The translations under genes were made by a program, and so were the position numbers. 64,000 bases of DNA from Amia ocellicauda. Taxonomy: Eukaryota. Shown here one piece after another: positions 1 through 55,500 of this stretch (positions are counted from its first letter, which is position 1; each line of letters opens with the position of its first letter). Location of the stretch: contig NC_089855.1 of assembly GCF_036373705.1 (NCBI RefSeq), positions 18,085,962 to 18,149,961 of the forward strand. Direction: 5' to 3'. The notes under the pieces are model-generated. The model was given only the letters and a program-made list of their open reading frames with translations. It was not told the DNA's origin and ran no database searches.

Positions 1-395
1 GGCCTATATGTGCTGATGTAGCTATCACTCGTGTAAATGTCTTGTGACTGTGAAGGTTTGTTTGAATTTCAAAGTGTCAGTTTACTTATGAACTCCCTGC
101 ACAGTGTGCCTCTTATAAGGGGTCTGAATGTTTCAGGATACACCTGAAATTGAAGGAGGAGTTCTCCAAATCGGACCCAGTGCTAATGGATTGGAAGGAG
201 AACATGCATTGTGCTATGCTGATCAATGGGGTCTGGGAGAGAGGAAGTATAATCACTACTTTCCCTGGAAATATAGCAGAGGTGATTTGTGTTTATTTCC
301 TGCTCTTTTACATATAAATTTCACATAAAGGGTAAGCTTCATGTGTGCTGTGGCCAATACTGGTCTGTGTTTAAATTAGTCTATTGTCTGTGCAG

Positions 396-508
396 GTAAA
401 GCTCTGTGATTTTGGAAACCATGTGCTCTTACCCTTCAACAACCTGAGACCTCTGCACCAGGACCTCATGGGGTCTCTGGCTTTAGAGTGCTGTCTGGGA
501 GACATCAG
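396..508 (+). CDS. rnf17: rnf17-like exon (Tudor core: [37 protein letters not shown])
   Basis: Acceptor tgtctgtgcag|GTAAAG, donor ATCAG|gtaatt. It ends in phase 2, which matches the next exon. Confidence 0.65.
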
Positions 509-3500: not shown

Positions 3501-3607
3501 CTTTGTATTTAGTTAATTGATAAATATAATCTATTAACATGTCTATTTTGAAAGCATTCTTACTTTACAGCATTTTTTCACACCTGCATAAAACTTTTGA
3601 ACAGTAC

Positions 3608-3639
<32 letters not shown>

Positions 3640-4857
3640 CACTCACCTAAAGGATTATTAGGAACACCTGTTCAATTTCTCATTAATGCAATTATCTAAC
3701 CAACCAATCACATGGCAGTTGCTTCAATGCATTTAGGGGTGTGGTCCTGGTCAAGACAATCTCCTGAACTCCACACTGAATGTCTGAATGGGAAAGAAAG
3801 GTGATTTAAGCAATTTTGAGCGTGGCATGGTTGTTGGTGCCAGACGGGCCGGTCTGAGTATTTCACAATCTGCTCAGTTACTGGGATTTTCACGCACAAC
3901 CATTTCTAGGGTTTACAAAGAATGGTGTGAAAAGGGAAAAACATCCAGTATGCGGCAGTCCTGTGGGCGAAAATGCCTTGTTGATGCTAGAGGTCAGAGG
4001 AGAATGTGCCGACTGATTCAAGCTGATAGAAGAGCAACTTTGACTGAAATAACCACTCGTTACAACCGAGGTATGCAGCAAAGCATTTGTGAAGCCACAA
4101 CACGTACAACCTTGAGGAGGATGGGCTACAACAGCAGAAGACCCCACCGGGTACCACTCATCTCCACTACAAATAGGACAAAGAGGCTACAATTTGCACA
4201 AGCTCACCAAAATTGGACAGTTGAAGACTGGAAAAATGTTGCCTGGTCTGATGAGTCTCGATTTCTGTTGAGACATTCAGATGGTAGAGTCAGAATTTGG
4301 CGTAAACAGAATGAGAACATGGATCCATCATGCCTTGTTACCACTGTGCAGGCTGGTGGTGGTGGTGTAATGGTGTGGGGGATGTTTTCTTGGCACACTT
4401 TAGGCCCCTTAGTGCCAATTGGGCATCGTTTAAATGCCACGGCCTACCTGAGCATTGTTTCTGACCATGTCCATCCCTTTATGACCACCATGTACCCATC
4501 CTCTGATGGCTACTTCCAGCAGGATAATGCACCATGTCACAAAGGTCCAATCATTTCAAATTGGTTTCTTGAACATGACAATGAGTTCACTGTACTAAAC
4601 TGGCCCCCACAGTCACCAGATCTCAACCCAATAGAGCATCTTTGGGATGTGGTGGAACAGGAGCTTCGTGCCCTGGATGTGCATCCCACAAATCTCCATC
4701 AACTGCAAGATGCTATCCTATCAATATGGGCCAACATTTCTAAAGAATGTTTTCAGCACCTTGTTGAATCAATGCCACGTAGAATTAAGGCAGTTCTGAA
4801 GGCGAAAGGGGGTCAAACACAGTATTAGTATGGTGTTCCTAATAATCCTTTAGGTGA

Positions 4858-4911
<54 letters not shown>

Positions 4912-18328: not shown

Positions 18329-19058
18329 TTACTTTCTTCAGGGTATCTTGATGGCAGGGTGTATAGACATGCTAATAATTTCCTTCAATTACTGTGCTTC
18401 CTATCAAGACCTGGTGAATTCAAACACAGTTGAGTAACAATCACTAACAGATGCATATAACGACCAGTTTAAAGCAATTCCCCTCAATATATTTTACATG
18501 ATACCGTGCATTATATAGCTAGTGCTTATCTGTTTTAATACAAAACACTTATCACAACCCAAATCAATCCAAATCAATAATGTAATTCTATTAAATGTAC
18601 ACGTCAAAGTGCTTCAGTGACGTGGTGTAAAGAATATCGTATGCAAAATTATTATATCGGACATCGACAACATTGCATGGTTAACTAACAACAGGCAAAA
18701 ACTTTATTGCATTATTAGTGTATTTCATTTTCCAAGACAGAATAAATGTATTCTTACCAAGGCCTTAGGTTCAAAACGTTTTGTTATTTAGAAATTACCC
18801 TGACAGATTGCGTTGAAAGTGAGCATCCCCACTTTCTGCATAATACATTCGTTGCAATTAACAATATTTGAAGTACTTTACATAGCATATATAAGATTGT
18901 ATGTGTTGCCAATATTAATCAATGCATTTTGTTTTACTGTATAAAATACTACTACTATATCAACTGTAACTCCTACAACTAACTACATTATACCGCTGTG
19001 CAAATAATGCGTATTTGATATAATATATAGATTCCATTTGAACGTAAAGGTTTCTTAC

Positions 19059-19200
19059 CTAATATTTTCCAAAAGCTCAAGTACACACACATTGACAAAC
19101 TCCGCGCTCCCTTAGAAACAGACAATACATCTTTCCGAATATACCGCCATATAAAAACAATGCCCGCGAGAGAGCGGCAGTTCCCACCGGCGCTGTGGAT
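19059..19200 (-). other. cenpj: Putative non-coding first exon (5'UTR) of cenpj. The TSS is not determinable from sequence.
   Basis: A consensus donor (minus) TATTAG|gtaagaaacc lies at 19058-19053. It sits directly downstream of ZNF143/CCAAT/ETS promoter motifs. The coding exon at 18335 has an acceptor and no upstream in-frame ATG of its own. Confidence 0.45.
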
Positions 19201-19950
19201 TCTGGGAATTGTAGTAACAGCAGGCGACCATCTACGTTTGAAACATTAGGGAATTCTGATGCTGAACTACGTTTCCCATAATGCAGTTCTCGATGTACGT
19301 TAAAGGGACGAGGTGGTGACGTAATGTTAAAGGTCGCGTTGTGGTGCAGATTTACGCAGATCTGCGCTGCTCCGACAATGGGATTGGAGGATTTCTGCAG
19401 ATCTGCACAGAACTGTGGCAATCTGCGCTACAAGAACGCGAGCATACGCATTTTAAATAAATCTGCAGTGTTTGTTTACATTACACAAGGCGGGAGGAGG
19501 GCGCTAAAGTTACAGATGATAGCCGCTAACTTTGGGTCAAACACTGTTACCAATATCTGATGGTTCTTCTCAAAATGTAACTATGGACTCGACATTGTTA
19601 CAGTTAGGTAGTTGCTGCCTTTAAAATGTATATATATATATATATATACACTTTACTTAAAAACAAAACAAAACAAAACCAAAAAACTAGCGCGGAGCAA
19701 CTGAAGTTGGTACAAATGAGACGACTGCAAACATCCAAACCACACACAGCTCCTTGCACCAACGGTATAATTACATGAAACTTAGCGGGCGAGAGGAGGC
19801 TAAATACAGTTTCATTTTTAAAGGTTTATACTATCAGATGTCCACTAGATGGGAATATAGATCCCATTCTTCATAAACTGAGGGTGAAAAGCAGGCTTGC
19901 TATACCCGGAAGTGCGAGTCAGGCAGGACCGGGATTGGCATTTGCAGTTG
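19060..19950. promoter_or_regulatory. cenpj/parp4 head-to-head (bidirectional) promoter region
   Basis: There is an elevated-CpG interval of about 0.9 kb between the divergent first exons. ZNF143 SBS-like motifs lie on the minus strand at 19198-19219 (ACTACAATTCCCAGAATCC) and on the plus strand at 19265-19293 (ACTACGTTTCCCATAATGCAG). ETS/GABP CCGGAAGTG lies at 19905-19914. CCAAT (ATTGG) sites lie at 19381-19386 and 19933-19938. Confidence 0.6.
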
Positions 19951-20030
19951 TGTTTTCACTCGCCAGACCCCGACCAGCAGCCGCACTTCGAGCTGATCCC
20001 CCGGCACAGCTGACGTGGGAAACTACACAG
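19950..20030 (+). other. parp4: Putative non-coding exon 1 of parp4. The start is approximate.
   Basis: A strong donor ACACAG|gtacat ends at 20030. The ATG-containing exon 24380-24511 has an acceptor (aacttgcag|TTAATCATG). Confidence 0.45.
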
Positions 20031-23000
20031 GTACATATTTATTTCATCTAAACACTTCGATACACAAAAGCGATCGTTTATTCAGAAGTATTTGAACAGC
20101 TGATATAAGCGTCACAGACTGGGGGAGGGGTGCTGTGTGGACTTACTTGACAATAAATGAAAGTGCCTACATGTAACGCAACATGTTTGAAATGTTGAAA
20201 ATGGAGTGCGACATCAGACCAGTGACATTGCATTTATTTACACTCATTAGGTGGTTTATCTTGCAATGTAACCTATCTGTAAAGCTCATTTTGATTGGCG
20301 AGAAAAGAAGACACTAGTGAGAAACACCCAGTTGTCCCCTAAGGGCTTATCAGAATAAAAAGGCATAACTTCAGTTGTCAAATGGTGGGTTAAAACCAGG
20401 GAGCATGAAACACAAGTGCTGTTCTGACCTGGATCAAAGATTACCTCGACCAATAGACCAATATAACAATCACCTGATATGTTGTAATGCAATACATCTA
20501 ATTGTGTGTGGAAGGTTGACTAATATCCTGAAACCCAACTTGCTGGTAATGAAAAGGTGTGTTGAACCCAGGTAAAGAATTGAAGTCTTAACGCACAGAG
20601 GATAATGTATTTATTTAACATGCCAGCCCTGGGAGCTCTGACATGGAAGCTCTCCACCTGAGTCTCTCTGAACAGCAAGATATTTACAGCTTTCATACAA
20701 TGCATGCCATGTGGTTCAGTGGGCAGAGTCAGTCACAGGCTTCCAAGAAGTGGAAGGTCAAGTCTTGAGGTCAAGTTCCTGGCCTTTGTAATGTCCTTGG
20801 TTGTCTTCCTGGGGGAAGGTGTGGGATGTGGAAACCAGATGGCTTCCTTGGATATACTGGGAGAGGTCTAGTCCCAAGGGTCATCATAGCAACTGTTATT
20901 CAATAACCATGATGTGACTGCTCCAGCCTTAAGATAAGCCACAGCAATGCATGAAGCAAATGCTGGGAGGGACTTTTGCTGCGTCCACACTCGTAAAAAC
21001 AGCCTCACTAACATTTGTTTGCTTGACAATTAATACAATTGGCTCTGTTGACGTATTAGTATTTCAAACATGAGTGTAAAACATTATACAGCATATACAA
21101 AGCATTAATACGGGCTCTTCAGGTGCATAAGGGGATTATTAATGGTATAATATATTTTCTTATTTCATGTTGTTGCGGTCCTCCTGCCAATACTTGTTGT
21201 TATTATTATATACATATATGAAATTACATGTCGAGTCTCATGTCAGCCATACAATCACTGTCAGCAAATAAAATACAATCTACATTTTATATTTTATATG
21301 TTGCTATTTTATATTGTTTTTAAATCAATCGTACATGATCAAACATCAATATACCCAATGTATGTACAAATACAATTTGTACCTATCAACTGGACTCCTC
21401 CCTCCCTCCAGTCCCTGTGCAGTGGCAAACTGTTTAATAAACTAATTCAGGATAACTGAATCAAATTTAGGAAGATTCCTGCCCTAGTGTCCCCAGGTGG
21501 AAGGGGCCCCAACAGGTTTTCATTTACGATTCTCATGTGATGTCAGAGCACATTTCAAAACCACACCAAGGAACAGCCCGGGGGAAAGTAGGGGGTACTA
21601 ACAGGCCAAAATACATCGGATTGCTTGCATATTGGTTCACATCTTCGCATGCATACTGTATCAGTTTGTGTGTGTACTGAAACTATATTTAGCCTCCCCT
21701 CAAGTGGGCGGGGCAGGACTAAGACGGACAAAAGGAAATCAAGGCGGTAACAGCAGTGTGATTTAACTCATCTGAGCAAGACATTACAGATTACTTTTAA
21801 GTATTGATGGCTGTATTCAAAACACGTATTACACACCAACATTTCAATTGGTTTATTGTTCTCAAATTATCTGATTCTAGAGCAGGCGATGTGCAAAAGA
21901 ATGATTTATTTTTAATAAAGTTTGTGTATTGGATGAATACAATTCCATTAATTTTCTGAATCTCAAATAAGAGGGCTGTAAGCGAGGCTATATCTACCTG
22001 AATCATATTGTTTAGATTTATTTATCAATGTGTTTTTTCTAGTAATGTGTGTTCATACAGAGTTGTAGACTTAATCACATTACCAGTGAATGTTGAAATC
22101 ATTTAATCCATCACTTATTTTGCTCTAAAACACATGATTTTCTACACATCACATATTCATATATTATTATCACGATTTGTTTTATTATCAGATTTGATTT
22201 TCTGTTCATAATTATATGTCTAATAATTTTGTCTTCCCGATTATGATGTTTATATTGAATCCGATAGTTGCAACAGAGCTGTTTATTTCCTTTATGAAAG
22301 TATCGTTAATCTAATAAATAATATTATTTATTTCTAAACAGATTACCTTGTCCAGGGTGACTTACAATTAAATACAATTACAATATACAATAACTTTAGT
22401 GCTAGTAAGAGCAAGTGTCAGAGACAATTCCATTAAATACAGTACTACTGGTAATGAGTAATTAGACACCATACAATTCATTTTCCTGATAATAATAATA
22501 ATACATGTTATATTGTAATGCAATTATTGTTAATCTAATAATACAAAGCCAATATAATATTATTTGTTTAAATAGGTGTGTAAAATATTAGAATATTGGA
22601 CAAATAATTGATCACATTCAATATTGTTGAATTTCGGATATAGTCCAATTATTAAATGCAATTATTTATTTTATTAGGAGAGAAATGAGAATGAAATGCC
22701 AGATATTACTCTTATGGATTATTATAACTGGAATTTTTTTTTTGTATTCATTAGCTATGTTCAGTTTTTATTTTGAGACAACATATGCAAGGATTCTAAC
22801 TTGCTTAAATGCGAGCATCCAGAGTAAGAATGGGAGACGAGCTTTTCTCAGAGTGCAACTATGTAAAATGCAAATGTATCTTGTGAGCAGTGTGGGTCTG
22901 AATGAATGTCTATCTGGTCAACATTTAATTTGCTGAGATTTCTACTCTGATGAAGTAAAGTGTTTACATTTACTGTACTTTACATTTTGGAAAAGAGCTT

Positions 23001-30500: not shown

Positions 30501-33500
30501 CCAGTTGTAAACATCATACAGCTATTCTATATTAATATATTCACATCTTTTTTGTGTATTTTGTTACAGGATGATGAATATGTGGTGTACAATACTAACC
30601 AGACTAAAATAAAGTATGTGGTCCAGTTCTCTGAGGACTATGAGGAAGTGAAGGCGTTTGAACCCACTGTGGACATTTCCACTGAGCTGTCCGAAGCTGT
30701 TCTGATAGACGACTCAGGTGAGTGACAGCATCAGCTGGGCTACTCACTGTGACTCCTGCTGTCTGAGGTTTCTGTGTGGACCTGTGTGCAGTGTTAGGCG
30801 TTAGCAACTCTGTGTTGTTTTCGCAGTGTCTGAGGCGGAGGCTGACTGCAGTGAGCTGTGCAAGAACCCGCTGGAGGGCATGATGGCAGGACTGCAGGAC
30901 AGTGCTGGGAAACTCCTCCCTCTGCAAAGAGTTCACGTCAAAGGCAGAGTGATAGACCTCCTGGCAGAGGTAGGGGAACCAAACCCAACCCCCTGCTGGA
31001 CTGCTTTGAATGACATATTTGCCAGTACAGTCTGAAATCTGTGCTCTTCGGTGCACATGCACAGAAATAATAACACCAAGCTTTTTTACATTTCCAGATC
31101 ATAATTTTTCAGACATACACGAATCACAGTACTGTTCCAATAGAGGCCAAGTACGTTTTCCCTCTGGATGAGTCAGCAGCTGTTTGCGGGTTTGAGGCAT
31201 TCATTAACGGGAAGCATTTGGTGGGAGAGGTAAAAATAAACATGCATCTTGGCACAAAGCCCAGCTTGGAAAAAATGTGAAACATTCCCCTTAACAATAT
31301 ATTTTCGCAGTAATTAGTTTATTGCTGTGGCAGACAGCATAGTCTGTAATGAGCTCCAGCCATAGTGTGGTCCAGGGCAAGGCTGCCAAACTGCCATGTG
31401 TGCTTTATGGTCTGTTTACTAGTTGTGTGCCATTTCTCTTTGGGAACCTTTTACAGTTTTGGCGTCTCCCCTCAGGTGAAAGAGAAAGAGCAAGCCCGGC
31501 GAGAGTACAGGCAAGCCATTGAGAAGGGCCATGGAGCATACCTAATGGACCAGGATGCACCTGTAGGTTTTACCCCACTATTTACCTGCCTCTCTACTTA
31601 TACAGCCATATATCTGTCTGTGTGTCAATATGTATCTTTGATTGAGAGAAGGATACATACTGATATAAAAACAAATATATACACACACAGGAATGTTTTT
31701 TGTTTCCTTATACCCTTAATTTTTAAGTTTACATTTGTTTTCACATTTGAAAAGGCAAAGAGTCAGGGCAAATTGACACTAGGCCTAGTGTTCAATGTAT
31801 TCAGTTTACTCAGTGTCCGAAAAAAGTTTTTTTATATGTTTCCCTTTTAATCTGAATCTACAGGATGTGTTTACAATTAGTGTTGGAAACCTCCCACCAA
31901 ACGCCACTGTGTTGATCAAAATCACATATGTGACGGAGCTGAGTGTCAGCGAAGGGGCCATCGTGTTCCGTCTGCCCGGCAGTGTGGCCCCGTGGCAGCA
32001 GAGCAGCGCACTGAACGAGAGAACTCAGGTCTGAGTCTCTGTATTGTCAAAAATGTGTTTCTTCTATGTAGTGTATAAAGTAAATACAGACAGAAAAAGA
32101 TAACCTGATCTGAATATATTGAAGGAAAAAAATGTTTATCTGGTAATGAGTCTGAGTCTATTTTCTGGGAGAATATTGATTTAAAAACTTCAGGTAGAAT
32201 TTGTATGTCATCAAGTTAGACATACTATTATAATGTATATCTGCAAGTATGGTAAGCTTAATTATTCTCAGAGAATATTCATGTCTGTGGCTTCTGCAGC
32301 CTGTGCTGAAGGATGGTCATTATTTATGTGTCACAATGACAATAATTGTAATCCTTGAAGGACCCTTTGCAAAAAACGTTTGTTTTTCTCTGCTCTGTAG
32401 GACACTGTGAACAAGGTTTGTGTGACTGACATGGAGACAGAGAGGTGGGTTGGGCCCAAAGTGTAAACAAAATAATTTTAGCCACTATTATAAAAAAAAA
32501 TATATATATATACAGAATAAAATTAAAAATGTATACAATTTTGCTTTTTCTCATTCAACTGTAAAACATATTTTCAGTATTCTAGTTTTATTTTTATTTT
32601 TTTATGAGGAATTACCACATCTCTTTGTTTATTGTGTTTAGGTAAATGTTTCTTCTCAGTGTTGTTTTATGACATTGGTTACTGCATTTCCTTAAATGTT
32701 TGTGAATATATATCAAATGCTTATGAAGAAGATATGTTGCACTAAAACGATCCAATGCTTTTGGTTTTTATTGTAGCATGAATTAAATGAACTGCTTTCA
32801 ATGCCAATAGCATTCGTTCTTCTGTGGGTATTCTGTGGTCATTAACTTCAGTCATGTTCCTGTTTATAATCCACAGGCGTTTTGACCTGGAGATGTCTGT
32901 CGAAATGCCTTATGAGATGACACACATTCGCTGCCCCACACACAATATTAAAATGAAGGTAATTGCCATCAGTGTCAAATCATGTTTTTGGCTATCTCTT
33001 TAGATGTTAAACCCTCACCAGATGTTTCATGAATATTGCTTAAAGAGGACGCAATGGGACAGTAGCAGTCTTCTTATGAACTAACATAGTTAAAAGTTTA
33101 AAACGAAAAACAACTATTAAAGAGTTAGATACACAGAGCTCCTCAGTATGGTTTCCTCACACAGTCTATGTGCTAATGATATATGTATTGGGATTTCCAG
33201 AGAACACAGTGCAAAGCAGTGATCAGCACTGTGAAGGGCGACTCTCTGGGGCCTGATGGCTTTCTTCTGTCTCTCACCTTATCCGAGATGCACCTGCCCA
33301 GAATGTGGGTGGAGAAACACCCAGATAAAGACAGTCAGGTAATCCAGAGATTCCACCTGTGATCCTTGGTATTGTAATTATGCGGTTTTATTGTCCTTCT
33401 TTCCTTCCAGTGTCAGTGCCTCATCTGTATTTCACTGTATACTGCATTTTCACATCCATTAGTGAGGAATACCTGGAAGTAGCTCCATTTCCATCCATTT

Positions 33501-36500
33501 CACAGTACACAGACTACTAAGAGGAGCTCTTGCTTTTCTCCCTATTGCTGTCTGCAGGCGTGCATGCTAGTGTTTTACCCGGCATTTGAGTCCAACACAG
33601 ACCCGGGTGAGGGGGAGGTTGTCATTCTCTTGGACACCTCCAATTCTATGAGGGGCGAGACCCTTCAGAATGCCCGGAGGATCGCCCTGCTGGCACTGAA
33701 GGCCCTCAACTGCAAGGTCAACATCCTCTTCTTTGGCACAGGTGGGTGCTGGCCAAAATAATTTGGACTTACACCTTTATTGGAAACACACAGTTGTGTC
33801 AAATCTTGTCAGTTCATCATTTTATTACATGCAGCGCCTTTTTATCAAGTCCTCAAATTGCTAGGAAATCACAATTGGAGTAAAGCATTGTGAGAAACAA
33901 GCAGTCAGTTCACTAATGATCAGAAGTATAAATCCAAACATCACAGTAGCATAATAGTTGTACAGTTAGGTCCATATATATTTGGACAGTGACACAATTG
34001 CCATCATTTTGGCTCTGTACGCCACCACAATGGATTTTAAAAGAAACAATCAAGATGTGTTTTCATCTTTAATTTTAGGGCAGTTACATCCAAATTGGGT
34101 GAACGGTGTAGGAATTACACCCATGTATATATGTGATCCCACCAATTTTAGGGGCTCAAAAGTAATTGGACAAACTAACATAATCATGAATTAAATTGTG
34201 AGTTTCAAATCCTTTGCAGTCGATGACTGCCTGAAGTCTGGAACCCATAGACATCACCAGATGCTGGGTTTCTTCCCTGGTGATGCTCTGCCAGGTCTGT
34301 ACTTCAGCTGTCTTTAGTTCCTGCTTGTTCTTGGGGCGTTTTGCCTTAGAAATCAAAACAAACCAATCAGAGAGATGGCAACAGCGTTAGGTGTGGCAAA
34401 ATCAACTATGTGGTACATTCTTAAAAAGAAAGAGAACGCACTGGTGAGCTCAGGAACACCAAAAGGCACAGAAGACCATGGAAAACAACTGTGGTGGATG
34501 ACAGAAGAATTATTTCCCTGGTGAAGAAAAACCCCTTCACAACAGTTGGCCAGATGAAGAACACCCTCCAGGAGGTAGGCATATCTGTGTCAAAGTCAAC
34601 AATCAAGAGAAGACTTCACCAGTGTAAATACAGAGGGTTTACCACAAGATGTAAACCATTGGTAAGCCCCAAAAACAGGAAGACCAGATTAGAGTTTGCT
34701 AAAAAAAACATTTGAAGAACCCTGTACAATTCTGGAACAACATCCTATGGACAGATGAGACAAAGATCAACCTGTACCAGAATGATGGGAAGAGAAGAAT
34801 ATGGAGAAGGGAAGGAACTGCTCATGATCCGAAGCATGTTATGGCATGGGCATGTATGGCTACCAAGGGAACTGGTTCGAAGCATACAGTGAAGGAAAAA
34901 AGTATTTGATCCCCTGCTGATTTTGTACATTTGTCCACTGAGAAAGAAATGATCAGTCTATAATTTTAATGGTAGGTGTATTTTAACAACAATAACAACA
35001 AAAAAATCCAGAAAAACACATTTCAAAAAAGTTATAAATTGATTTGCATGTTAATGAGTGAAATAAGTATTTGACCCCTTCGACTTAGTACTTGGTGGCA
35101 AAACCCTTGTTGGCAATCACAGAGGTCAGACGTTTCTTGTAGTTGGCCACCAGGTTTGCACACATCTCGGGAGGGATTTTGTCCCACTCTTCTTTGCAGA
35201 TCCTCTCCAAGTCATTAAGGTTTCGAGGCTGACGTTTGGCAACTCGAACCTTCAGCTCCCTCCACAGATTTTCTATGGGATTAAGGTCTGGAGACTGGCT
35301 AGGCCACTCCAGGACCTTAATGTGCTTCTTCTTGAGCCACTCCTTTGTTGCCTTGGCTGTGTGTTTTGGGTCATTGTCATGCTGGAATACCCATCCACGA
35401 CCCATTTTCAATGCCCTGGCTGAGGGAAGGAGGTTCTCACCCAAGATTTGACGGTACATGGCAAAACATCCATCGTCCCTTTGATGCGGTGCAGTTGTCC
35501 TGTCCCATTAGCAGAAAAACACCCCCAAAGCATAATGTTTCCACCTCCATGTTTGACGGTGGGGATGGTGTTCTTGGGGTCATTCCTCCTCCTCCAAACA
35601 CGGTGAGTTGAGTTGATGCCAAAGAGCTCGATTTTGGTCTCATCTGACCACAACACTTTCACCCAGTTCTTCTCTGAATCATTCAGATGTTCATTGACAA
35701 ACTTCAGACGGGCCTGTACATGTGCTTTCTTGAGCAGGGGGACCTTGCGGGCGCTGCAGGTTTCAGTCCTTCATGGCGTAGTGTGTTACCAATTGTTTTC
35801 TTGGTGACTGTGGTCCCAGCTGCCTTGAGATCATTAACAAGATCCTCCCGTGTAGTTCTGGGCTGATTCCTCACCGTTCTCATGATCATTGAAACTCCAC
35901 GAGGTGAGATCTTGCATGGAGCCCCAGACCGAGGGAGACTGACAGTTATTTTGTGTTTCTTCCATTTGCGAATAATCGCACCAACTGTTGTCACCTTCTC
36001 ACCAAGCTGCTTGGCGATGGTCTTGTAGCCCATTCCAGCCTTGTGTAGGTCTACAATCTTGTCCCTGACATCCTTGGACAGCTCTTTGGTCTTGGCCATG
36101 GTGGAGAGTTAGGAATCTGATTGATTGATTGCTTCTGTGGACAGGTGTCTTTTATACAGGTAACGAGCTGAGATTAGGAGCACTCCCTTTAAGAGAGTGC
36201 TCCTAATCTCAGCTCGTTACCTGTATAAAAGACACCTGGGAGCCAGAAATCTTGCTGATTGATAGGGAATCAAATACTTATTTCCCTCATTAACATGCAA
36301 ATCAATTTATAACTTTTTTGAAATGCATTTTTCAGGATTTTTTTGTTGTTATTCAGTCTCTCACTGTTAAAAATTAAAATTATAGACTGATCATTTCTTT
36401 GTCAGTGGGCAAACGTACAAAATCAGCAGGGGATCAAATACTTTTTTCCCTCACTGTACTGCGAAAGCAACCCAAGTCTTTTTTTAAGGTGAAGAAGTGG

Positions 36501-43354: not shown

Positions 43355-44794
43355 AATCTACCCAGCTTGGCAACACAGTGCCAGCTCACATTTGGCATGT
43401 GGCAGTGGTGTCAAAACTATCTGTACTGCCCTAAAAGTCAAGTCGTATATATTATATCCATAAATGTTAACATATCATGCTTAAAAAGAAAAAAGCACAT
43501 AGTCTCTGTTGCTTAACATTACTCAAAGATCTCATTACTCATGTTTCATATTCGCCAAGGGAGATTCTCCTCCATGTGTACTGCAGGAGGTAGGTCATGG
43601 TCTACAGGTACAAAACCACATTGCACTTTTAAGGTCTTTAGGTCTTTCAAGAGCCTGAACTGTAAGTTAATTACTGTCATGACATTAAATTGAAGATATG
43701 TTACAACTGGAAGTGGACAGTGAATATGTCCACTGGTTGGCTTCAGTGTAATCACTGGTCCGAGTGTGAAGCTGGTGATGGGCTCTTGTGATTGACAATG
43801 CATGGCATCACCTTTTTATTATAATCATTGAAAAGACCGCTTGAGAACTTTTTGAAAGAATTAACTGCACAATTAATCAAAACTAAAATGTTTACCTCTC
43901 TTTTTAAATGGAAAATTAATGGGTTTTGCATTTGACATGATGATTTACCTGCTTTAATCTTTTTAAAATGTTTAGCTGTGTAGGTGCTATTATAACTTTT
44001 TAGACATTTTAGCTGAGCCTATATTGCCTTAAACCATAATGTATTGGCTGTTTTGAATTTCTAAAAGCTTTTTAATAAATCTTGTATGCCTAGTTATTGT
44101 TTTTTCTTTGAGTTTTTTTTTATTTAATTTAATTAAAAATATACTGTACTAAAATTAAAATAATTAACTTATAATAATAATAATAAAAACAACTTAGACT
44201 TCATGAGTTATGTTGAGCAAAGCTTAGCTTTAATATTCAGGTGTATTTCAGAGGAAGGGCCTTGTAGCCTTGCCATGTATAGCATATTTGGAAGAAATTG
44301 GGTGGTACTCGAAATTGTTAAATCCCTAAATTCAATCATTCAGTGTGTGCCCCCTAGTGGATATAAGGGGATGCGCAAAAACACAATTATCTCCGCAGTA
44401 AACAGTGACCTGGTTTTACATTTTGCTTTTATCAACTGTCACCACTAATAATTTTAGTGACGCAATCTATTGATCTGTAGAGTTTGATCATGCAGTGGTG
44501 CTTTTGGGCAGTACATATTCATGAGAAGCATACAAGAAAGCAAAAGGATTTTGCTGTACCTGTATTTAAATGTTAGTTTCGGTTAATGCTATCATTACAT
44601 TAACGACGTATGACTATAAATATGATTTAAATAGATTGAATGTATTTTTAATTGAAGACTATGTACTAACGAACACATGATCTTCACACTGGTGGCGGTA
44701 GGTGTTTTTTCTATAATAAATTAAATGTTTACAACAGAATAGCGATGGACAGAATACACCTAATGCTGCTGTGTTGTATGAGCCCCTAGTCAAA

Positions 44795-45900
44795 TAGGAT
44801 TTTATTTTCCCATTATAATCCTACAGGATTATGAGAATATATCACTGATACTATCAGAATCCTGTCAGACTTAATGGATATGTGAAGGATACTTTTAGAT
44901 CCTATTGGATTATTGTCAATCCTGGGAGATGTGTTTGATGTGTGCTGTGTAATGTCACAGGGACGCGGCACCAGTAACTGCCCTGTCAGTTCTCGCCTCA
45001 TTTCAACAGCTGGCGGTTGACTGGCCTGGCATCTCACCGGACTTCACTCGGCAAACGGGTAACTTACAGACAATGGCAGCACTACACATGTTTGTATAAA
45101 CCCTGCTGGCTTTTGTTCCAACCGGGCTCTTAATTCACCGGTATATTGCTTTGTTGTTTCAATTAAATGCATAAAAGCCGGAGGCACTGACGTGTGAAAA
45201 GGTCGAGGTTGGTGTGACCTGGCAGTAGGCGCTGTGTCTGTGGTAGCAGGTGATATGATCGCATTGGTCTGATTTACAGCTATTACGGATTCAATGAAGC
45301 CATTAAGGGCGGCGGGCAGGGACTCCAGTCTGATCCGCCGGTATAGCTGACACTGACGGATCTATTTTGTCAGCAGGCGTCGTGAGGTTGGTTTAACCCG
45401 AGCCTGCCGGCTTAATGGTAGCAGAGTTAGCTGACTTTTTACCTCAGCTGTTCTTGCTGCCAGACGCAACTGTAGCAAGTTATCGTGAACCGTTTCATTG
45501 CTGAAAATAACTTGCATGTTCGCTACAAACTAATCCTGAAACGTAATTGAAAGCCCTTGCGATTGAGTTTGGTGAGGCAAAGGTGAGGGCTGCACAAACC
45601 GCGAAGTAACAGTAAGACACGATGCACACGACCTATTAACTTGTTACAAATCACACGACAAAAATACCGTTACTTACAGTGAAAAAGGTTTATTTTCGTT
45701 AAATGTTACACCCTTCTCCCGTCGAATAGTTACACTATGTTGCATATTACTATATACATGTATGTCGTTTTCCAATGGGTTTTCTCCATAACTATCCTCT
45801 AAGAATTTCCAATAGAAATCCTATAGGATTGGTTCCAGATCATGATATAAATTCCAATAGGATTCTTATAAGATTGAAATCCTATACTAGGACAGGTTGT
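44795..45900. repeat. Unclassified structure. Two clusters of the palindromic motif ATCCT(N2-4)AGGAT (44795-44935 and 45815-45900) flank a CpG-rich ORF-less core. It could be a foldback or non-autonomous DNA element, or a regulatory block.
   Basis: Motifs read directly: caaatAGGATTtt, ATCCTacAGGATT, cagAATCCTgtc, agATCCTATTGGATtatt, caATCCTggg / gaaATCCTatAGGATTgg, ccaatAGGATTctt, gaaATCCTatac. Confidence 0.35.
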
Positions 45901-46079
45901 CTAGTTATATGAAACCGTAATAGAGTAGTGTAAATTAAATTCTGCCTCTGCCCTGGTCAGTGTCAGTGATAATATCTCGTACTTTGAAATGAGTAAATGA
46001 GTAAATGAGTGAACTCTTTCAAATTGGTCTTGATATGCACGCCACCCTAATGCAAGCCCATTCAAGACAGTGTGAGGTG

Positions 46080-46473
46080 AGTGACACTGGCATTGGCGGA
46101 TCCAAGGGGATCGGTGCGATTCTGCAGATCTGCGCAGAACTGCGGGAATCTGCGCTACAAAGTGTGAGCACGGCGCGGGCATCCGGGGCTGCAGGCGACT
46201 ACAGCTGGAGATCATGTGATTGGTGTAAACTAAACTGCAGCGACTGTACTATTCTCCCTGGGATTGGTCGCCTGAGCGGTCTGTCAATACAACCTTTGAT
46301 CCCATTGGTGAACGTAGCGTCCTACACGCCCCGCCCTCCCAGACGGTCGCCCCGCCCCCCGAGACGAGAGGCAGCGCCTGCTCAGACGGCGAGGCCTGGG
46401 CTGTGGCGCAGACGTGCAGTCACCGCACAAGTTTGGTTTCGTAAGAAAGAAAAAAAAGCAAATATCAACAGAG
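46080..46473 (+). promoter_or_regulatory. mphosph8: mphosph8 CpG-island promoter / 5'UTR region
   Basis: Three inverted CCAAT boxes (ATTGG at 46217-46222, 46262-46267 and 46304-46309). GC boxes CCCCGCCC at 46328-46335 and 46349-46360. High CpG density immediately upstream of the ATG at 46474. Confidence 0.6.
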
Positions 46474-46584
46474 ATGGCGGACAAGGCTGCCGGGGCCGAG
46501 CGGTCGGAGCACGGCGACAGTGAGCAGGATGAGGAGGATGTGTTCGAGGTGGAGCAGATTATTGATGAGAGGCAAGACGAGGAG
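46474..46584 (+). CDS. mphosph8: mphosph8 first coding exon (MADKAAGAERSEHGDSEQDEEDVFEVEQIIDERQDEE)
   Basis: ATG at 46474, donor GAGGAG|gtgagc. Confidence 0.85.
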
Positions 46585-49500
46585 GTGAGCGGCTCGGCGG
46601 GGGCTGGGGCTGGGGCATACGAGCGCTTGTTGCTGCTGGGGACCTGAGGCTCCTGCAGCTGAACCCGGGACGACGGCGAGCGAAAGGCCGAGGCCCACTG
46701 AGCGGCCAGCCTGTTTACATACACAGCAGCTCTCTCTTCCGACTTCGTCACTCCTTTCCCGGGGGACATGAACGCCCCGCTCCGGTGTCTGTTTGTTTAG
46801 CCACTCGTCCCTGTGTTTTCTGCTCCAGTCGAGTTTGCACTGCAGGTTCTGCACAGGGTCATTCAGGGTTCACATGTTATCCCGAGGCTCAGCCTAGATC
46901 TGTGTGTGTGTGTGTGTGTGTGTGTGTATTCTGGTTTAACATGCATCGATAAAACTGACGTTCATTTGATAATGGTATTTGTTAGGACAGTTTGTCGCTT
47001 TATGTCTATATCGCTTAGGTAGAAGATGCTTGCTATCGCTTCATGTGCTCTTATATTTGTATAGGGAATTTGATCAGAAGTTTGTTTACATAACCGGCAC
47101 TGTTTTTGGTAATGTCATATTTTAAAGGTCACAGTTTTCTTCAGCTTAATAGTTTAAAAACTTGCACCACAGAAATACCCAGGGGCAGTAATGACATGTC
47201 AATCTGACATTTGTTTTTTAATGTAGTGGATATCTGCATATTTCAATTGATCAGTTTTGATTATTTTTTGCACATTGAGAGAGTTATTTATTTTGTTGGC
47301 CAAAGTTATTAATTATATTTTTAGTTTACAAAGAAAATGCTTGCAACCTGCACAATTCGTTTACTATGCATAATATGCATTTAATGTTTAATATTCATAA
47401 TTTGGCTATTGACTGAAGCATAGTATACCGCTACTATAGGCTATTGGTTGAACGGTCATCTTTCACTCATAACACCGTATTATTATTATTATTATTATTT
47501 TGAAGAAACACTATACCCATTCAGAAAGAAAATACATGGTGAGCTCTGTAAAAAATTGAGACCACTTAATATTGATTTCTGAACTTGGAGTGGTCTCTTA
47601 ATTTTTTCCAGAGCTGTATATAAACATTTATAGTATTAGACAGGATGGTTTCTTTTACATGTTCTCTTCTACAGTTTTTCATGAGAACACTGAGAGAACA
47701 GTATCTATATTAAACCAATATTGTATACTGGGTGCATGGACAACTGTCCTGTCTGGAATTAAGGCGATGCTTTGAAAACCATGCAAAGGAGTCCCGGTTA
47801 CAGCTGCACATGTCTATGAGGCAGTAATAATGTTCGATTTACAGCTCAACACCCTATCTGCTCCCGATCCGGTTCTCTGGCTGTGTCTGCTAGCCTGCTG
47901 CACCTGTTGCATGGCTGTATGTGCTCCCAGGAGTCTCCTGCTTCTGTGGCAGGTCGTCGAGGGAAGCCCTGTTCTTTGTGTCTGCAATTTAATCAGTCCC
48001 CCTGGAAAACCTTTGCCCAAGTCGCGCCAGGGTGGCTCTTCAGAGTTCAGCACCTCGGCACAACATTATACAGCATTATTTATAGTGGGACGCCCCCTCT
48101 CTCTTTATGCTGAGGCACACTCACAGTTGCACGCGTTTTTTGTTTTGCCTTTATAAAATGGCCGGGCTTATCGAATCATTCTTTAATTGTTGCACTTGGC
48201 AGGAATGTGAAATCTGTGTGTGCCAACAGGGATAGAACTGACTCTTTGGATAGTCTGTTTAATACATTAGGCTAAAGGCTTTGTACTTTTGGTGTCCCGT
48301 AAAGTGTCTTGGTCCACAGTACTTAATTCAGTGATGTTAATGCAAGCACAATTGTATATAGTTTCTGAAAGCCCTGAGATAGACGTTCAGGAGGGATGTG
48401 ATGGAGTGAACCCCTATCCAATAAAACTACACTAATCGTTGCTGGTTTAGTGTGATTCGGTGTGTTAAGAGAACACATTTAAAAAATGTTATTAATGGTA
48501 GTAATTTGTTGTTTAAAAAAAAGTGGAAAAAATATATAAAAAAGGGGCGTGGTTGCTATTAATAAATCACTTATGAACTTACCTGTTGTGGAGGGAAAGG
48601 GGGAGCTGGTCTGAATTTGTTGGGGTTGGGGTGTGGGTGGCCATGTTGGTGAAGGAAGGGTAAGGTGGTTACAGAGGCCAGGAGAGAATTGCAATATATG
48701 CTTGGCCATTAACATATTTATTGTATTAAGGTAGGCACTCTTAATTCTCTGGCCACAAGGGAAGGGTTCAGGTGGTTGTAGGAAAAGGGTGTGTGCAATA
48801 ATGTTTTGCTTTATTTTCTTTGTACTAATGTTGGTTTGTTTTTCTTCATGGTATTGGATATAACAACTGATGTTATTTATTTATATCATGAGGGTGTGTT
48901 ATGTACTGTTATGTACTTTCAGATATTGATATATTTATATTTTATTAATGGTCTGTTCTGGCGGGTGGACTTCTAGACCTTGGGTGATAAAGAGGGAGTG
49001 TGACTGCTAGGGGGTCAGTTGGGAGGTTGGGTTCCTACAAGGAGGTGGTCAGTATAGAGCTCTGCCTTTGAGCACATTGTTCCTGATTAACCAGGGTAGC
49101 TCTGGTTTTCCTGCTCTCAGTAGTTTTTGTTTTCTCTTGGGAAGGAATAGGTTTGTTAAAATCATTCGGTTTGTCTTTTTTGAAGATAGTAAACTGAATT
49201 AAAATAGTTTTTTTGATAACTGTCTATCTGGTCCTACGTGTTCCCAGCATTATAACACCTGACCCTGGGTCCGCAACAAGGGACTTGAAGACCCGACTAC
49301 CTTCACTGTAGTTCTGTTCCCTGATCCTGTAATATTGGGCATGGAGGGTCATTCTCGGGAAGTGTGGGTGGTCAGTTAACTGGCAGTGACCCATTTTGTT
49401 AGTTGAAGTCTTTGGTGTTATTCTCTCTCAGAGGTTTTTGTAACAGGGCTTGTTTTGTTTGTTTGCTGGTTATGGTGACACCACACCCAGATGTTTTTGT

Positions 49501-52500
49501 ATTTATTGCGTATCTGCCAAGTCTGGGCCTTTCGGCATTGGGGCTTTGATGCTTTCAAGGGCTGTGCAGCTTTAAGGTGTGCCTGTGATGGCAGTTTGAT
49601 TTCAAGCTCTAAATGTATGCTACGCTACTGAGTCTGCAATAAAATTCGGTTATCCTTAGCTTGTGGCTGAGCTTCCCCATTTATCTGTAATTAGCACAAT
49701 TAGATTCAGTGAATTGGTAGTGCTGTTGTGGTAAATCACGCCTCTCACTCCCTCCGTGCGGCAGATGGCTGCAGAGTCTTTGACAGAACCTCTGTTTTTC
49801 AACATGTTACAGTAGGGGGGAAGGGCTGTTGTTCACTACAGGGGCCACCGGAGTAGCCAGTCCTAGTGCAGGGCTCCTGATCTCTGCTCATTTACTGGAA
49901 AGCCCAGATGCTTGTCCTGGCTGCGACAAGGATGGGTCTGTGGCTGTGCTGCAGCCAGGGAGTCGGGCACAGTGCCATTCCCGGGCATTCACAGTTCAGC
50001 TGTCTGTGAGTGTGCTGGGCCTCAGGACTTTCTGGCGCTTGTGTAGTCATATCTGCGGAGTAGTGGAAACCCACGTAAACAACGGGGGGGGGGGGGTTGT
50101 GGGGCCTGGGAGGGGTTTCTAGTGAAGCAGTCACTGATACTACAGCTCAAGCCTGTTTGATGTGTTTGTGTTTATTTCTGGAACTTGTGTTTAAAATTAG
50201 AACATGTCTGCTTTCTTTACACTTTTTAAGAATACATATTTTAGAGTAATATTATCTCAAAGCAATCTTTCCCAGTCATTCTGTTATTCAGGTCAGAGTA
50301 CTGGGGTGCGTGGTAAGCAGGTTGGGGGGGTTGTTGTGCCAGGGGTATATGGGTGCCAGTGAGGGCGTTGCTTTCCACAGGGTGGGGTAGATGTGGAGGG
50401 GACTGCAGTGGCACGTTTCTTAGCAACAGACTTGCTAGTTCCTTGCATGCACTCGAGTGTTATATTTCACTGTGATCAATCTGACTGAGCTATTCAGATT
50501 TCTGTGTTTCATGAAAATGTCATTAGTTTTGAGAATGTCATTGACATTCATAAATCAATGGATGCTGATGTTTTTTTTTTATTGTGGTATTTTAAATTGA
50601 ATATTTTTAAGATGTACACAACCATTTGTGGTAGTATTGTACTTTACATATCTGTAACATTAAAAAAAAAAAAAAATGGCAATGAGAAGCAGGGTGCAAG
50701 GAGGGATTACCCTACAAATACTAGAAATCCGCTAATGGCTGAGTAAGATTAATACACAAAGAAGAACCTTGAGAGGCAATAACTGTGCCCAGGACACAGG
50801 CACATAGAATAGAAGAGCAAGCACTGTCCAACCTGCACCCTAGTCCAGCTGTTGGAGACTGATGAAGGGAACAGAGAGATGACACATTGCAAGCCTTTTG
50901 TTTTCAATTATATAGATATGAAATTATATATATATTTTTTTATTGTCCAACATGAATCTAATTGCATCCTTCAAGAAAATAAGTGACAAAGATAGTTATA
51001 AAAATTCAAGTATGCAAATCATATAGTTAATATATGGGATCTTTGTTCTCTCTAAACAGAAAGATTTGTTATTTCTACAAATAGGCTAAATATGTATATA
51101 TGAATGCCAAAAATGCCATATAACAATCTTGGTACCTGTGAAGTACAGTAAACAAAACCAGCTGGCAATGTAAAGCAGTCCAAAGAATAAATATAATGGA
51201 AAAGTATTATTTTGCTCTCTCCAACAATGTATTATTCACTACAAGAGTGAAAATGTATCTCCACACAATGGTCTTCCCTTTTTCAACCATATGCAAAATA
51301 ATTTATTTTTAACTGCCTAATGTTTATTTGCATTTTATGTTTATTTTTCTACCTTTACGTTTACATTGTCAGCAGTGTTTGTTTTTGTGCTTTACATAGG
51401 GGTATAAAACCGATACCCCTGGATAAATAAGGACAGCATTGAAATGGATTTGAACCCCAACAGATAGTCTATTAGAAATTCGGGTAAGGGGTGCTGCTTT
51501 AGCCTGCTAATCAGCCTGCAGTCCTGACTTGTCTGTGTTTGTTTGTGACAGGGGAGGATCTCCTACAGGGTGCGGTGGAAGGGCTACACCTCCGAGGACG
51601 ACACATGGGAGCCAGAAGCTCACCTGGCAGACTGTAAGGAGGTGCTGCATGCATTCAGGAGGAAACAGAGCGAGAGCAAAGCAAAGAAGGAGAGTGTGGT
51701 AAGGAGGAGTTCTTTAGTAACAGCCCCTTATACAGGGTCATGAAGGAGATCCGAGACTGGTGAGCTCATGTGCCCCACCATGCTAGCAGGTGAGATGTGC
51801 AGTACAGTTGCTGGTGCCAGTCCCAGTTGTGTCAATCTGTGCTTCGGGCTATTGAGTGTTGGTGAACATGAGAGGAGAAGATGGGCTACACAGGCTCTGA
51901 GAACTGACTGCTTGAAATGGAAGCCCACTAGGTCGAAAGGCCAGATCACACGAGGCAAAGTGGTCAGCAGCTGTGTTTGAGGATCTGCAGTGTTGTGTTG
52001 ATCTGATTGGCATGCTGTTTGTTCTCTCTGTCAATGTTGGTGTAAACCTGCACATTGAATACTCTTTGCCCTCTCTAAGGATTAGTATCCTAGAATGGAG
52101 CAGATTGGTTGACTTTCAAGTGAGAGGGAGTGCAAGACGTGGTGTAGTGTAGAGGCAGTCGAGCATTATATAGTGAAGCAGCATCACAGATGAGAAGAGT
52201 ATGTGTAAGCAGAGACTATGCAGGACACTAGCTGATCTGTGAGATTTGCAGAGGTGGCAGGTCAGCCATGGCACCAAGGTTTGAGAGTTTCCCTCCACTT
52301 ACGGTAAGGTGCACCTCTAGTGTGCGGACTCAAATTGGAGCCATCAGCTAGCAAGAAGCGTGTTTTAAAAACTTATTTCAATCATTGTTATTCTAATGCT
52401 CTTAAATCTTGGAAAATGCAGGTGGAAGGTGCACAGGCAATAGGCTGTAGTGCAGTGCAGGCGGGTCAGCAGGATTTGGCACCTGAGGTCAGTAATGGAG

Positions 52501-55500
52501 CTGATGAGAAGCAGGGGGCAGTGGCAGCCAATGCCGCTCAGAAGGACACACCACAGAAGGTAAGAGATGCGATCTGAGTCTAGGGAGATGCCCATGCTTC
52601 TGTTAGACAGATAGGAGTTGCACTGTGGTTATGGTCTTTTGTTGACAAGAGGAAGTTGTAGAGAGATTGTGATGATATGCTTCTAACAATGTTGGGAATA
52701 TTATTTTCTGGTAGTTCCCCCCCACTTTCTTCTAAAAATGCCTTCCTATCGTGGTGAGAAACTATGTGTTGTTCTAAGGGTAGTCAATGCATATGTTGCA
52801 ATGAGTTGGAATCTGCTCCATTCTAATTTAGTTTTCTATAGGTAATTTCTGTAGGGAATTTTCTCATAGAAGACAAGCTGACATTGAAAGGACTGTCTAG
52901 AATGGGACAGATTGTGGCATAGCTGTGTTCTGCAATACACTGTCTTGATTGTCCTCAAGCTGTGTGTCTGTAATCAAATTGTACATTTTGATGCATACAC
53001 TGAAAATGATGGATCTTAACAGATGTTCCTAAAAATATTTTCTGTTTATTAGAAAGGTAACTCATGCATAACTTCCTTTGACTAAAAGTTAAAAAAGAAA
53101 GAAGCAGAGCTCTTCTACTGAGAAGATGATTGGTAGCAGTGATAACCTTTGTCACTGATTAGCTTTTTGTTTAAAAATGTATTTTAATACATAAATAACA
53201 TTATTTAATGCATCAATAACACTGCTTTTTCATTTTATTTTAAATAGAAGTTGCCAATGAAGAGTGACCTGTTTGATGCCGATTCAGAGAGTGATGGTGA
53301 AAAGAAAGAATCGTCTCCCAAGAAGAAGAAAAAGAAGAAGTCTAAGGAGACGGAACAACCAGACAGTCGGAAGAAAGACAAGAGGGAGAAGAAGAACAAA
53401 GCTGAGAAGGTGACAGAGTCTGAAAGGACTGAAACCGAGGAGGCTGACAGTGAGCCCATAGCCTCTGTGCCTTTCAATGAGAAACCGTGGAAGACCAAGA
53501 AGAGAGCGGTAGGACCTGAGGAAGAGTCGAAGGCCATCAAGAGGCAAAAAAAGGAGGAGTCCAAAGCTAGTGGAAAACACAGAAAGGATTTCATTGAGGG
53601 CAAGAAAAAGCAGAAGGCCCCAAAGGAACACAGAAGTGAGGTGGAGAAGCAGATGGATTCCACAGAGGATTCCCTGCAGGAGGAGTTGATTGAAGCTCAG
53701 TCTGACCTTGCCAACATGGCAGTGGAGGACGCAGTCAGTGAGAGCCCGGGTCTTTTAACCAGCTCCCCCGAGAAGACACCTGTACACAAGCCAATGGACT
53801 CAACGTCCTGGTCGGAACAGCAGAGCTCCCCTGATGTGAAGGCCAAGCAGAAAAAAAATAAGGGGCAGCAGCTGGGTGAGAATAAGCTGAAGCTTCAGGG
53901 TATCAAGGACTTCATTCAGGAGAGGAAGAGTGTGAAGCCCGAGACCCTGCTGCAGAAGAAGGAGAGCCCTCAGGCGAAGCTCAAGAACTTACTGATGGCC
54001 AACAAACCAACTGACATGATGGCCAAAGCACACAAAGCCTCCAAGACCGCAACGGACGATGAGCCAGGCTTCCTCTCCTCCGACTCCAACGAGGGCAGTT
54101 GCTCTGTCAAGAGGAAAAGCAAAAGCAAAGCTCGTGAGCCTTCCCCCAGAACCCTCCCCAGGGGCAAGCAGGAGGATGCCAAGCTGGAACCGAATCCAGG
54201 TTTGGGAGGCAGTGCGAAAGGCAAGGACTCCTCCACAAAGAACGATGAGGCGGAGAAGGAACAGCCCATGTCCTCCAATTTGTTTGAGAAGTTTCTGCTG
54301 ACCTGCGAGGCCAAGGACAGGATGCCGCGGAGACAGAGCAGCCACATGCCTGTCCCAGGTTTGGAAGAGAAAGCGGACCAAATGAAGATTACTCCCCCGA
54401 AGGTTTTTAGTTTAACTTGACTTTCTATTTTTGATTTATGTATTTGACACTTTACACACTGAACATCCATCAAAGATATAAGCCCTGTGAATAATATTGA
54501 AATGGAGGGTTATAAAACCTGCCGCAGTTCCTATTGACTGCCTTTACAGTAGATGCATCAGATTCACTTTTCAGTCAGGATTGAGTCTTGCTTATAAAAT
54601 CCCTCTGCCTTTTTATTTCGATTTTTAGATTTGGGCAACATTTTAGATGGTGAAGATGCAGCAGTTTCAGTGTCATGGTTGAATTGCTCAGGCTAGAATT
54701 GACCCTGCAATGGTTTTGCAACTGGAGAAACCTGGCATGAAAAGAACAATAAACATTACACCAGAAAAGTGTGTGTAAATGATCTGTTCTAGGGTATACA
54801 TATTTACAAATTGCATCTAAGTACAGCAAGAAACCTCATTCACCTTAACTCTCATGATTATTAAATTAATATAGGACCATCAAAGTAATAGTCTGCTTTT
54901 TCTATTATAATCTCTTAAAGGGTAACTAATTATTTAGACCGTGTCTAACTGGTTGTATTGTTTGTTACCGATACCGTAGAAAGGTATTTAGTGGATGCCT
55001 AGAGCACAGGGCGAGCCTCACAGTCTGTGTTTGCATGTAGCCCACAGCCAAGGCTGAGAAGAAAACAAAACCTGCGAGAGAGACTCCCGTTCAGAGGCCA
55101 GAGCCAGACAAGGTGGAGAAGGCCCGAAAAGATCCAAGGATTCCCGAGGGTGAGTGGCAGTCTGTCAAGCATAAAAGTGCCGAGTGCAGAAAATGTAGGC
55201 AATTATTAGTGTGCTCTAGACCTGGGCTTCTCACTCATTCTCTTCAAAAGCTTTGCCTAGGTATGTTTTGGTTTTGCTTGGATCTCCCCCATGGGTAGAT
55301 TTACATTGACCATCTGGAATTAGAGATCAACTCTGTCTTTATCATCATCCTAACGCCGGCTGCATTGAAGAGAGATGGAGCATGATGGGTAGGATGGTAA
55401 ACTTTGTTGTGAAACTTTTGCAGGGAAGTGATGTGAATGTGAGGTGAATCCCTACAGGTCACCATGTGTAACCCCCTTTTTAACGGTGGCTGTGTGGCGA

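Follow-up and report, generated by a model that had tools for sequence, protein, structure and literature searches.

Immediately upstream of mphosph8, positions 44785-45892 of the 64-kb stretch of DNA analysed here (the window) form one discrete unit of ~1.1 kb, in which two arrays of a palindromic motif enclose a CpG-rich, non-coding core. The unit is real and single, and its architecture, with symmetric motif arrays bracketing the core and the whole behaving as one unit, is statistically sound. Its leading interpretation, to which we give slightly less than an even chance, is a non-autonomous cut-and-paste (class II) DNA transposon or an immobile relic of one; within that reading we infer mobility, protein binding, superfamily and the cause of CpG retention.

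Gene context of the unit

The window has a vertebrate, fish-like composition (GC 0.417, CpG o/e 0.37), and searches for plasmid or phage contamination gave no match. The earlier note on this DNA had named the downstream gene as mphosph8 and placed the block 0.6-1.7 kb upstream of it. Both statements hold: fish MPHOSPH8 proteins used as tblastn queries place the gene on the + strand (Table 1), and 44795-45900 lies 574-1679 bp upstream of the ATG. The nearest protein to the large mphosph8 exon, that of Acipenser sinensis, is only 46% identical. The upstream neighbour is a + strand gene with a VIT-domain exon at 31365-31850, and the unit is located in the 2.3-kb spacer between the inferred 3' end of that gene and the mphosph8 core promoter.

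Table 1. Positions of the unit, its parts, mphosph8 and transposase ORFs in the 64-kb window
Feature	Position	Strand	Remarks
Left terminus candidate CCTAGT	44785-44790		Inverted partner of ACTAGG; holds CTAG/TA, possibly a 2-4 bp target-site duplication instead
Left AT-rich array	44788-44935		Copies/half-sites at 44788, 44817, 44858, 44886, 44898, 44918
Outermost left motif copy ATAGGATTT	44794-44802	+	Perfect reverse complement of 45877-45885
CpG-rich core	44950-45800		~850 bp; without detectable coding or RNA-family signal
Right AT-rich array	45770-45886		Copies at 45770 (TTCCAATGGG), 45794, 45817 (perfect 14-mer), 45851, 45862, 45878
Outermost right motif copy AAATCCTAT	45877-45885	-	Reverse complement of ATAGGATTT
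Right terminus candidate ACTAGG	45886-45891		Inverted partner of CCTAGT
mphosph8 exon 1 CDS	46474-46584	+	Start codon 46474-46476, donor 46585, read from sequence
mphosph8 exon 1, tblastn match	~46486-46581	+	Fish MPHOSPH8 proteins
mphosph8 chromodomain exon	51549-51700	+	tblastn, fish MPHOSPH8 proteins
mphosph8 large exon	53250-54400	+	tblastn, fish MPHOSPH8 proteins
mphosph8 further exons	up to ~59550	+	tblastn, fish MPHOSPH8 proteins
Tc1/mariner-type transposase ORFs	3788-4828, 5111-5566, 35085-36099, 1770-2441	+, +, -, -	One intact, 346 aa; all CpG o/e 0.26-0.56

Several other features of the window were recorded. Between the unit and the mphosph8 core promoter there is a microsatellite, (AAATGAGT)x3, at 45987-46010, and a (GT)n run follows just after mphosph8 exon 1, at ~46902-46931. 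A second CpG-rich block occupies 18400-20200; it is AT-rich (GC 0.32-0.45) with o/e ~0.95-1.1, and it carries ACTACAATTCCCAGAA-like motifs, which we take to be of ZNF143/Staf type. This block probably serves as a bidirectional promoter, with a minus-strand gene (large exon 14301-15824) on one side and the + strand VIT-domain gene on the other. A 58-bp block occurs in the same orientation and at 84% identity in the mphosph8 promoter region (46103-46160) and in this sole other CpG-rich promoter-like block (19376-19433); with its core GATTCTGCAGATCTGCGCAGAACTGCGGGAATCTGCGCTACAA and a period of ~10 bp (GCAGAATCTGC), it may be a common promoter motif module or a small repeat.

Two arrays of a palindromic motif

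The repeated motif is a palindrome of 11-14 bp whose full form is AATCCTATAGGATT; 15 half-sites aligned in one orientation give the half-site consensus RAATCCTAT. At up to two mismatches the 14-mer AATCCTATAGGATT has four matches in 64 kb (44817, 44898, 45817 and 45851), all within the unit, where 0.24 were expected, and none of 100 shuffles reached four. At three mismatches the unit holds two additional copies, at 44788 and 45862.

Three palindromes had been quoted from this DNA before, and all exist, at 45818 (ATCCTATAGGAT), 44818 (ATCCTACAGGAT) and 44899 (ATCCTATTGGAT). The accompanying count of at least 12 AATCCT/AGGATT copies stands for the pentamer ATCCT/AGGAT only, which occurs 13 times in 44780-45910, but exact hexamers number 10 (AATCCT 6, AGGATT 4). 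Concentration of the motif in two clusters was also claimed correctly: the densest 150-bp bins for ATCCT/AGGAT in the whole window all fall there, at seven (from 44776) and five per bin, versus 0.31 expected per 150 bp. The extents given for the clusters need one correction, in that the right one begins slightly earlier than 45815, with TTCCAATGGG at 45770 and ATCCT at 45794.

Both clusters are devoid of CpG (0 in each), and GC in the left array is 0.34. Autocorrelation at lag 11 reaches z = 2.9 in the left array and z = 3.3 in the right, where TRF also reports period 11 at 45846-45875; because of this periodicity and the period-11 array, the two look like degenerate runs of an 11-bp quasi-palindrome. 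Within each array a unit of 17-28 nt recurs in inverted as well as direct orientation (D1, D2, I3, I4, I9 and I20). A string search of the literature for the motif returned primer or chance matches only. The ZNF410 motif CATCCCATAATA showed no enrichment in the arrays, and TAATCC is present in only 4 of the 15 half-sites.

A CpG-rich core without coding or RNA-gene signal

The unusual CpG density noted between the clusters is borne out by measurement: 44950-45800 contains 40 CpG, with o/e 0.88 versus 0.37 for the window and GC 0.46. Only three blocks of the window come near o/e 0.9: the core itself at 0.88, the core promoter of mphosph8 (46100-46800) at 0.89 and the promoter-like block at 18.8-20.1 kb at 0.95. 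Recognisable transposons of the window, including a Tc1 element with the intact 346-aa ORF, have o/e 0.26-0.56, and exons 0.31-0.39. Since only the core and the two promoter blocks reach ~0.9, the core appears, on the indirect evidence of CpG retention, to bear the signature of germline-unmethylated DNA.

A CpG-island identity, as the earlier note had proposed, fits in part. The o/e of 0.88 is promoter-like, but GC is 0.46 and a CpG-poor gap of 300 bp (45800-46100) lies between the core and the true mphosph8 promoter island at 46100-46800. Judged by the Gardiner-Garden thresholds (at least 200 bp, GC at least 0.5, o/e at least 0.6), 45001-45400 is borderline (GC 0.50, o/e 0.81) and the whole core falls below the GC threshold. 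In 400-bp windows, o/e stays at 0.6 or above almost unbroken from 44400 to 47000.

The interior also lacks a long ORF, as previously stated: read from start to stop, the largest ORF has 74 aa, and the minus strand holds the longest stretch free of stops, at 105 codons. When all stop-free pieces of at least 28 aa were concatenated over the six frames, no match at E <= 10 was found among 5.8 billion proteins, and the core had no Pfam match. The 105-aa piece, compared with 1.84 billion representatives, gave weak matches only, inflated by its internal repeats. Rfam searches for RNA genes, at E <= 1 locally and at the gathering threshold window-wide, returned nothing relevant, and no tRNA was found. 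A candidate internal tandem duplication of ~190 bp in the core scored 37, versus 26.5 +/- 4.9 for shuffles (maximum 41), and was rejected as not significant.

Ends of the unit and possible target site

The outermost motif copies mirror each other perfectly as inverted 9-mers, and on the outer side of each stands one member of the inverted pair CCTAGT/ACTAGG. Among flank pairs of 12 nt drawn at random from the window, 1.3% have an inverted 6-mer in common (P ~0.013). Read together, CCTAGT[CAA]ATAGGATTT and the right end in reverse complement, CCTAGTATAGGATTT, match over 15 nt with a 3-nt indel. A gapped alignment of ~50 nt between the left end and the reverse-complemented right end scores 24 (shuffles 17.0 +/- 2.7, maximum 29). 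The arrays aligned in direct orientation score 25, as good as the inverted alignment, because the motif is palindromic. The foldback structure that had been suggested for this DNA is not supported by these data: the arms align over ~50 nt only, with gaps, and the arrays, folded as single strands, reach z = -1.64 and +0.16 relative to shuffles.

When end pairs were scanned exhaustively, none combined a convincing terminal repeat with a 5-10 bp duplication at the motif ends, and the strong inverted-repeat pairs all lacked an unambiguous duplication of 2-10 bp. The only shared bases are the palindromic CTAG (or TA, CTA, TAG). Because CTAG is palindromic, these bases allow two readings: they may belong to a terminal inverted repeat, or they may be a target-site duplication of 2-4 bp (TA, CTA/TAG, CTAG); by chance, a direct 4-mer is common to such flanks in 25% of random flank pairs. 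As the letters stand, taking the unit out at either CTAG or TA leaves the palindrome CCTAGG restored.

An alternative boundary, a 23-nt inverted repeat at 44830-44852 and 45959-45981 (18/23 identical, core TATCACTGA(T/C)ACT, direct AATAT flanks), was judged coincidental; it is placed asymmetrically to the arrays, and by our own estimate ~0.2-0.5 such pairs are expected by chance. The 8-mer CCCCTAGT has only two copies in 64 kb. The second of these, at 44351-44358, lies 432 bp upstream of the left terminus and is followed by GGATATAAGGGGAT; extended similarity to the unit's ends was not found, and this copy could be a degenerate extra terminus or a coincidence.

Two superfamilies were considered and rejected from the ends. 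For hAT, there is no 8-bp duplication and the termini do not read YARNG; the sole CAGGG...CCCTG pair (44958/45955) is situated away from the arrays, and its flanks match over 4 bp. For piggyBac, with expected CCC...GGG termini, TTAA is absent from both ends, the left reading GAGC followed by CCCTAGT and the right CTAGGA followed by CAGG. Assignment to a TA-type (pogo/Tc1-like MITE) or an IS5/PIF-Harbinger-like group is possible.

Copies and related sequences elsewhere

BLASTN at word size 7-8 found no second copy of the unit within the 64-kb window. The orthologous sturgeon locus aligned at exon 1 only, with nothing upstream, a non-conservation that is not decisive because the species is too distant. 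Scanning metagenomes with the double-unit pattern yielded four loci: two are chance singletons, and two (L003 and L004) carry motif arrays, neither with a classifiable protein.

L003 is an orphan, unrelated, eukaryote-like metagenome contig (ENA ERZ778028 NODE-6969, 1-4915) with dense degenerate arrays of the same 11-bp quasi-palindrome. Its flank at 60-905 contains degenerate arrays of ATCCTATAGGATT-like palindromes, together with a 297-bp tandem duplication. Each of three apparent short introns, inferred between ORFs, holds a perfect tandem array of the 11-mer ATTCCCATAGG. Positions 45775-45830 of the window match L003 300-356 at 75% over 60 nt. Arrays of such an 11-bp quasi-palindrome thus occur elsewhere as repetitive DNA. 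The L003 ORFs have no Pfam domain and no homolog except themselves, so the contig is of no help in classifying the unit.

Interpretation of the unit

Subterminal repeated motifs are a feature of many, though not all, class II families, and the unit carries them. As a transposon, it would end in T[CAA]ATAGGATTT ... AAATCCTATA, set within CCTAGT ... ACTAGG, and each end would comprise 100-150 bp of AT-rich subterminal DNA dense in direct and inverted AATCCTATAGGATT sites spaced by roughly a helical turn. If the family were active, a transposase or an accessory DNA-binding protein provided in trans would occupy these sites; such binding would bring the two ends together and lead to excision, and the 850-bp interior would be a non-coding passenger. 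Its CpGs would have been kept either through a recent insertion or through location in a germline-hypomethylated, promoter-proximal domain.

What speaks for a transposon is that the motif is highly enriched and confined to two arrays ~1 kb apart, to which are added the inverted and direct internal copies, the inverted ends, the terminal alignment, the restorable CCTAGG and the lack of sturgeon conservation. Subterminal binding motifs in Ac/Ds, Hermes and Emigrant are a precedent, and degenerate arrays of the same 11-mer occur as repetitive DNA in L003. The earlier proposal of a transposon with subterminal repeats gains from the inverted outermost copies and the inverted CCTAGT/ACTAGG outside them, but it lacks a convincing target-site duplication and a second copy in 64 kb. 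The candidate terminal repeat, short and with an indel, also counts against it, as does the equally good direct alignment of the two arrays, and no transposase partner or related ORF was found among 5.8 billion proteins. An o/e of 0.88 suits a transposon only on condition that it inserted very recently or sits within a hypomethylated promoter-proximal domain; as this value equals those of two promoters, an unmethylated host element fits it at least as well.

Such a host element is the next reading in rank, and we consider it possible, though rather unlikely. Here mphosph8 would possess, in the core, a non-methylated island of orphan or distal kind that acts as an alternative promoter, as an enhancer or as the origin of a divergent non-coding transcript, and the arrays would be homotypic docking sites for a dimeric factor that recognises AATCCTATAGGATT and sets the activity or boundaries of the island. 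It is favoured by the agreement of the core (o/e 0.88) with the mphosph8 core promoter (0.89) and the 18.8-20.1 kb block (0.95), against 0.26-0.56 for transposons and exons, by the commonness of low-GC non-methylated islands in cold-blooded vertebrates (PMC3583005, PMC5161304), by the absence of the motif from the rest of the 64 kb and by the ZNF410-CHD4 precedent, in which two homotypic clusters serve one chromatin-regulator gene. However, the very distant sturgeon locus shows no conservation, no known factor is tied to the motif (that of ZNF410 is not enriched, with TAATCC in 4/15 half-sites), the inverted CCTAGT/ACTAGG outside the arrays is left without a role, and the CpG-poor gap at 45800-46100 intervenes before the real promoter. 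The two readings are not fully exclusive, as a transposon co-opted into the promoter domain would satisfy both.

Less probable again is an account with no single element at all, in which the core would be the upstream shoulder of a ~2 kb promoter-proximal hypomethylated domain and the arrays functionless, decayed micro- or minisatellites produced by slippage of an 11-mer. The lag-11 periodicity of both arrays, the TRF period of 11 at 45846-45875 and the perfect tandem of the near-identical 11-mer ATTCCCATAGG in L003 are all in its favour, as are the almost unbroken o/e of at least 0.6 over 44400-47000 and the similar size (~1.8 kb) and AT-richness of the CpG-rich block at the other promoter. 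Yet it requires the same rare 11-mer to have expanded twice, 1 kb apart, and nowhere else in 64 kb, an unlikely coincidence, and it leaves the inverted outermost copies and the inverted hexamer unexplained. At the foot of the ranking, on a level with each other, are two very improbable readings. One, largely refuted, is a decayed minus-strand coding sequence at 45823-44816, either a pseudogene or a degraded transposase gene: one frame has 9 stops in 369 codons versus 19-29 in the other five (P ~0.02 in Markov-1 simulations), but no homolog at E <= 10 and no Pfam match emerged, the 105-aa piece has only weak, repeat-inflated matches, and the open frame continues through the motif arrays. The other is a Helitron-type, rolling-circle non-autonomous element at 44790-45890, with 5'-TC, 3'-CTAG and a hairpin before the 3' end, which would account for the absent target-site duplication. 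TC at 44790, CTAG at 45887-45890 and an 8-bp stem directly before CTAG (ATAGGATT/AATCCTAT, 45857-45885) agree with it, whereas the host flanks are G and G instead of the canonical A and T, and the hairpin is AT-rich, built from the motif and folds no better than shuffles (z = +0.16). To our knowledge, symmetric motif arrays at both ends are not a feature of Helitrons, and we count this against the assignment as well.

Significance

The product of mphosph8 is a HUSH-complex reader that silences transposons. If the unit is an ordinary non-autonomous transposon, it matters for repeat annotation only, as an unclassified family whose subterminal site, a 14-bp palindrome, is unusual. If it is truly single-copy and conserved, arrays around an unmethylated island would point to a dedicated regulatory input to HUSH; alternatively, the unit could exemplify co-option of a transposon at the promoter of a transposon-silencing gene. 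By analogy with ZNF410-CHD4, the arrays might be docking platforms for a dimeric factor that controls or insulates an orphan non-methylated island, in a one-factor, one-gene circuit that possibly arose from a co-opted transposon; we consider this improbable. In the co-option variant, former transposase-binding sites would have turned into regulatory sites.

Comparison with known systems

Repeated subterminal binding motifs are documented in Ac/Ds (PMC3260210), in the hAT element Hermes (PMC10368747) and in the pogo-like MITE Emigrant/Lemi1 (PMC1636448). Like Emigrant, Ac/Ds and Hermes, the unit has short, though here only putative, terminal inverted repeats, next to which 100-250 bp of subterminal DNA are AT-rich and bear many direct and inverted motif copies, and it shares with those MITEs and transposons an unrelated non-coding interior and a size of ~1 kb. 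As in pogo/Tc1-type MITEs, the TA dinucleotide is present at both ends. Unlike hAT elements, the unit is without an 8-bp target-site duplication and CAG/TAG-type termini. It differs from Emigrant, Ac/Ds and Hermes in that its motif is a 14-bp palindrome, where theirs is an asymmetric repeat of 5-6 bp, and in having no family copy in the 64-kb window and no partner transposase found.

The Harbinger system employs an accessory Myb-like protein that binds subterminal sites, and its usual duplication is TWA. Harbinger elements occur across ray-finned fishes and generally have a 3-bp duplication, with terminal inverted repeats usually of 25-50 bp (PMC9179366). The unit resembles PIF/Harbinger (Tourist-like) elements in that its removal restores the palindromic CCTAGG and a 3-bp CTA/TAG duplication can be read. 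Unlike them, it has a terminal match of only ~15 nt with an indel, TWA is not seen, and there is no transposase or Myb ORF.

On the regulatory side, ZNF410-CHD4 offers two homotypic motif clusters dedicated to one chromatin-regulator gene (10.1101/2020.08.31.274324; 10.1101/2024.02.24.581901). The unit likewise places two dense clusters of one motif beside a single chromatin-regulator gene, the motif being otherwise rare (here, in 64 kb); its motif is a different one, with CATCCCATAATA not enriched, and the distant sturgeon locus shows no conservation of the clusters. In cold-blooded vertebrates, non-methylated islands are often of low GC and missed by CpG-island predictors (PMC3583005, PMC5161304). 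The core is like them in combining a promoter-like o/e with modest GC near a transcription start site and, taken as a whole, in missing the classical thresholds, and unlike them in being set off from the core promoter island by a CpG-poor gap of 300 bp.
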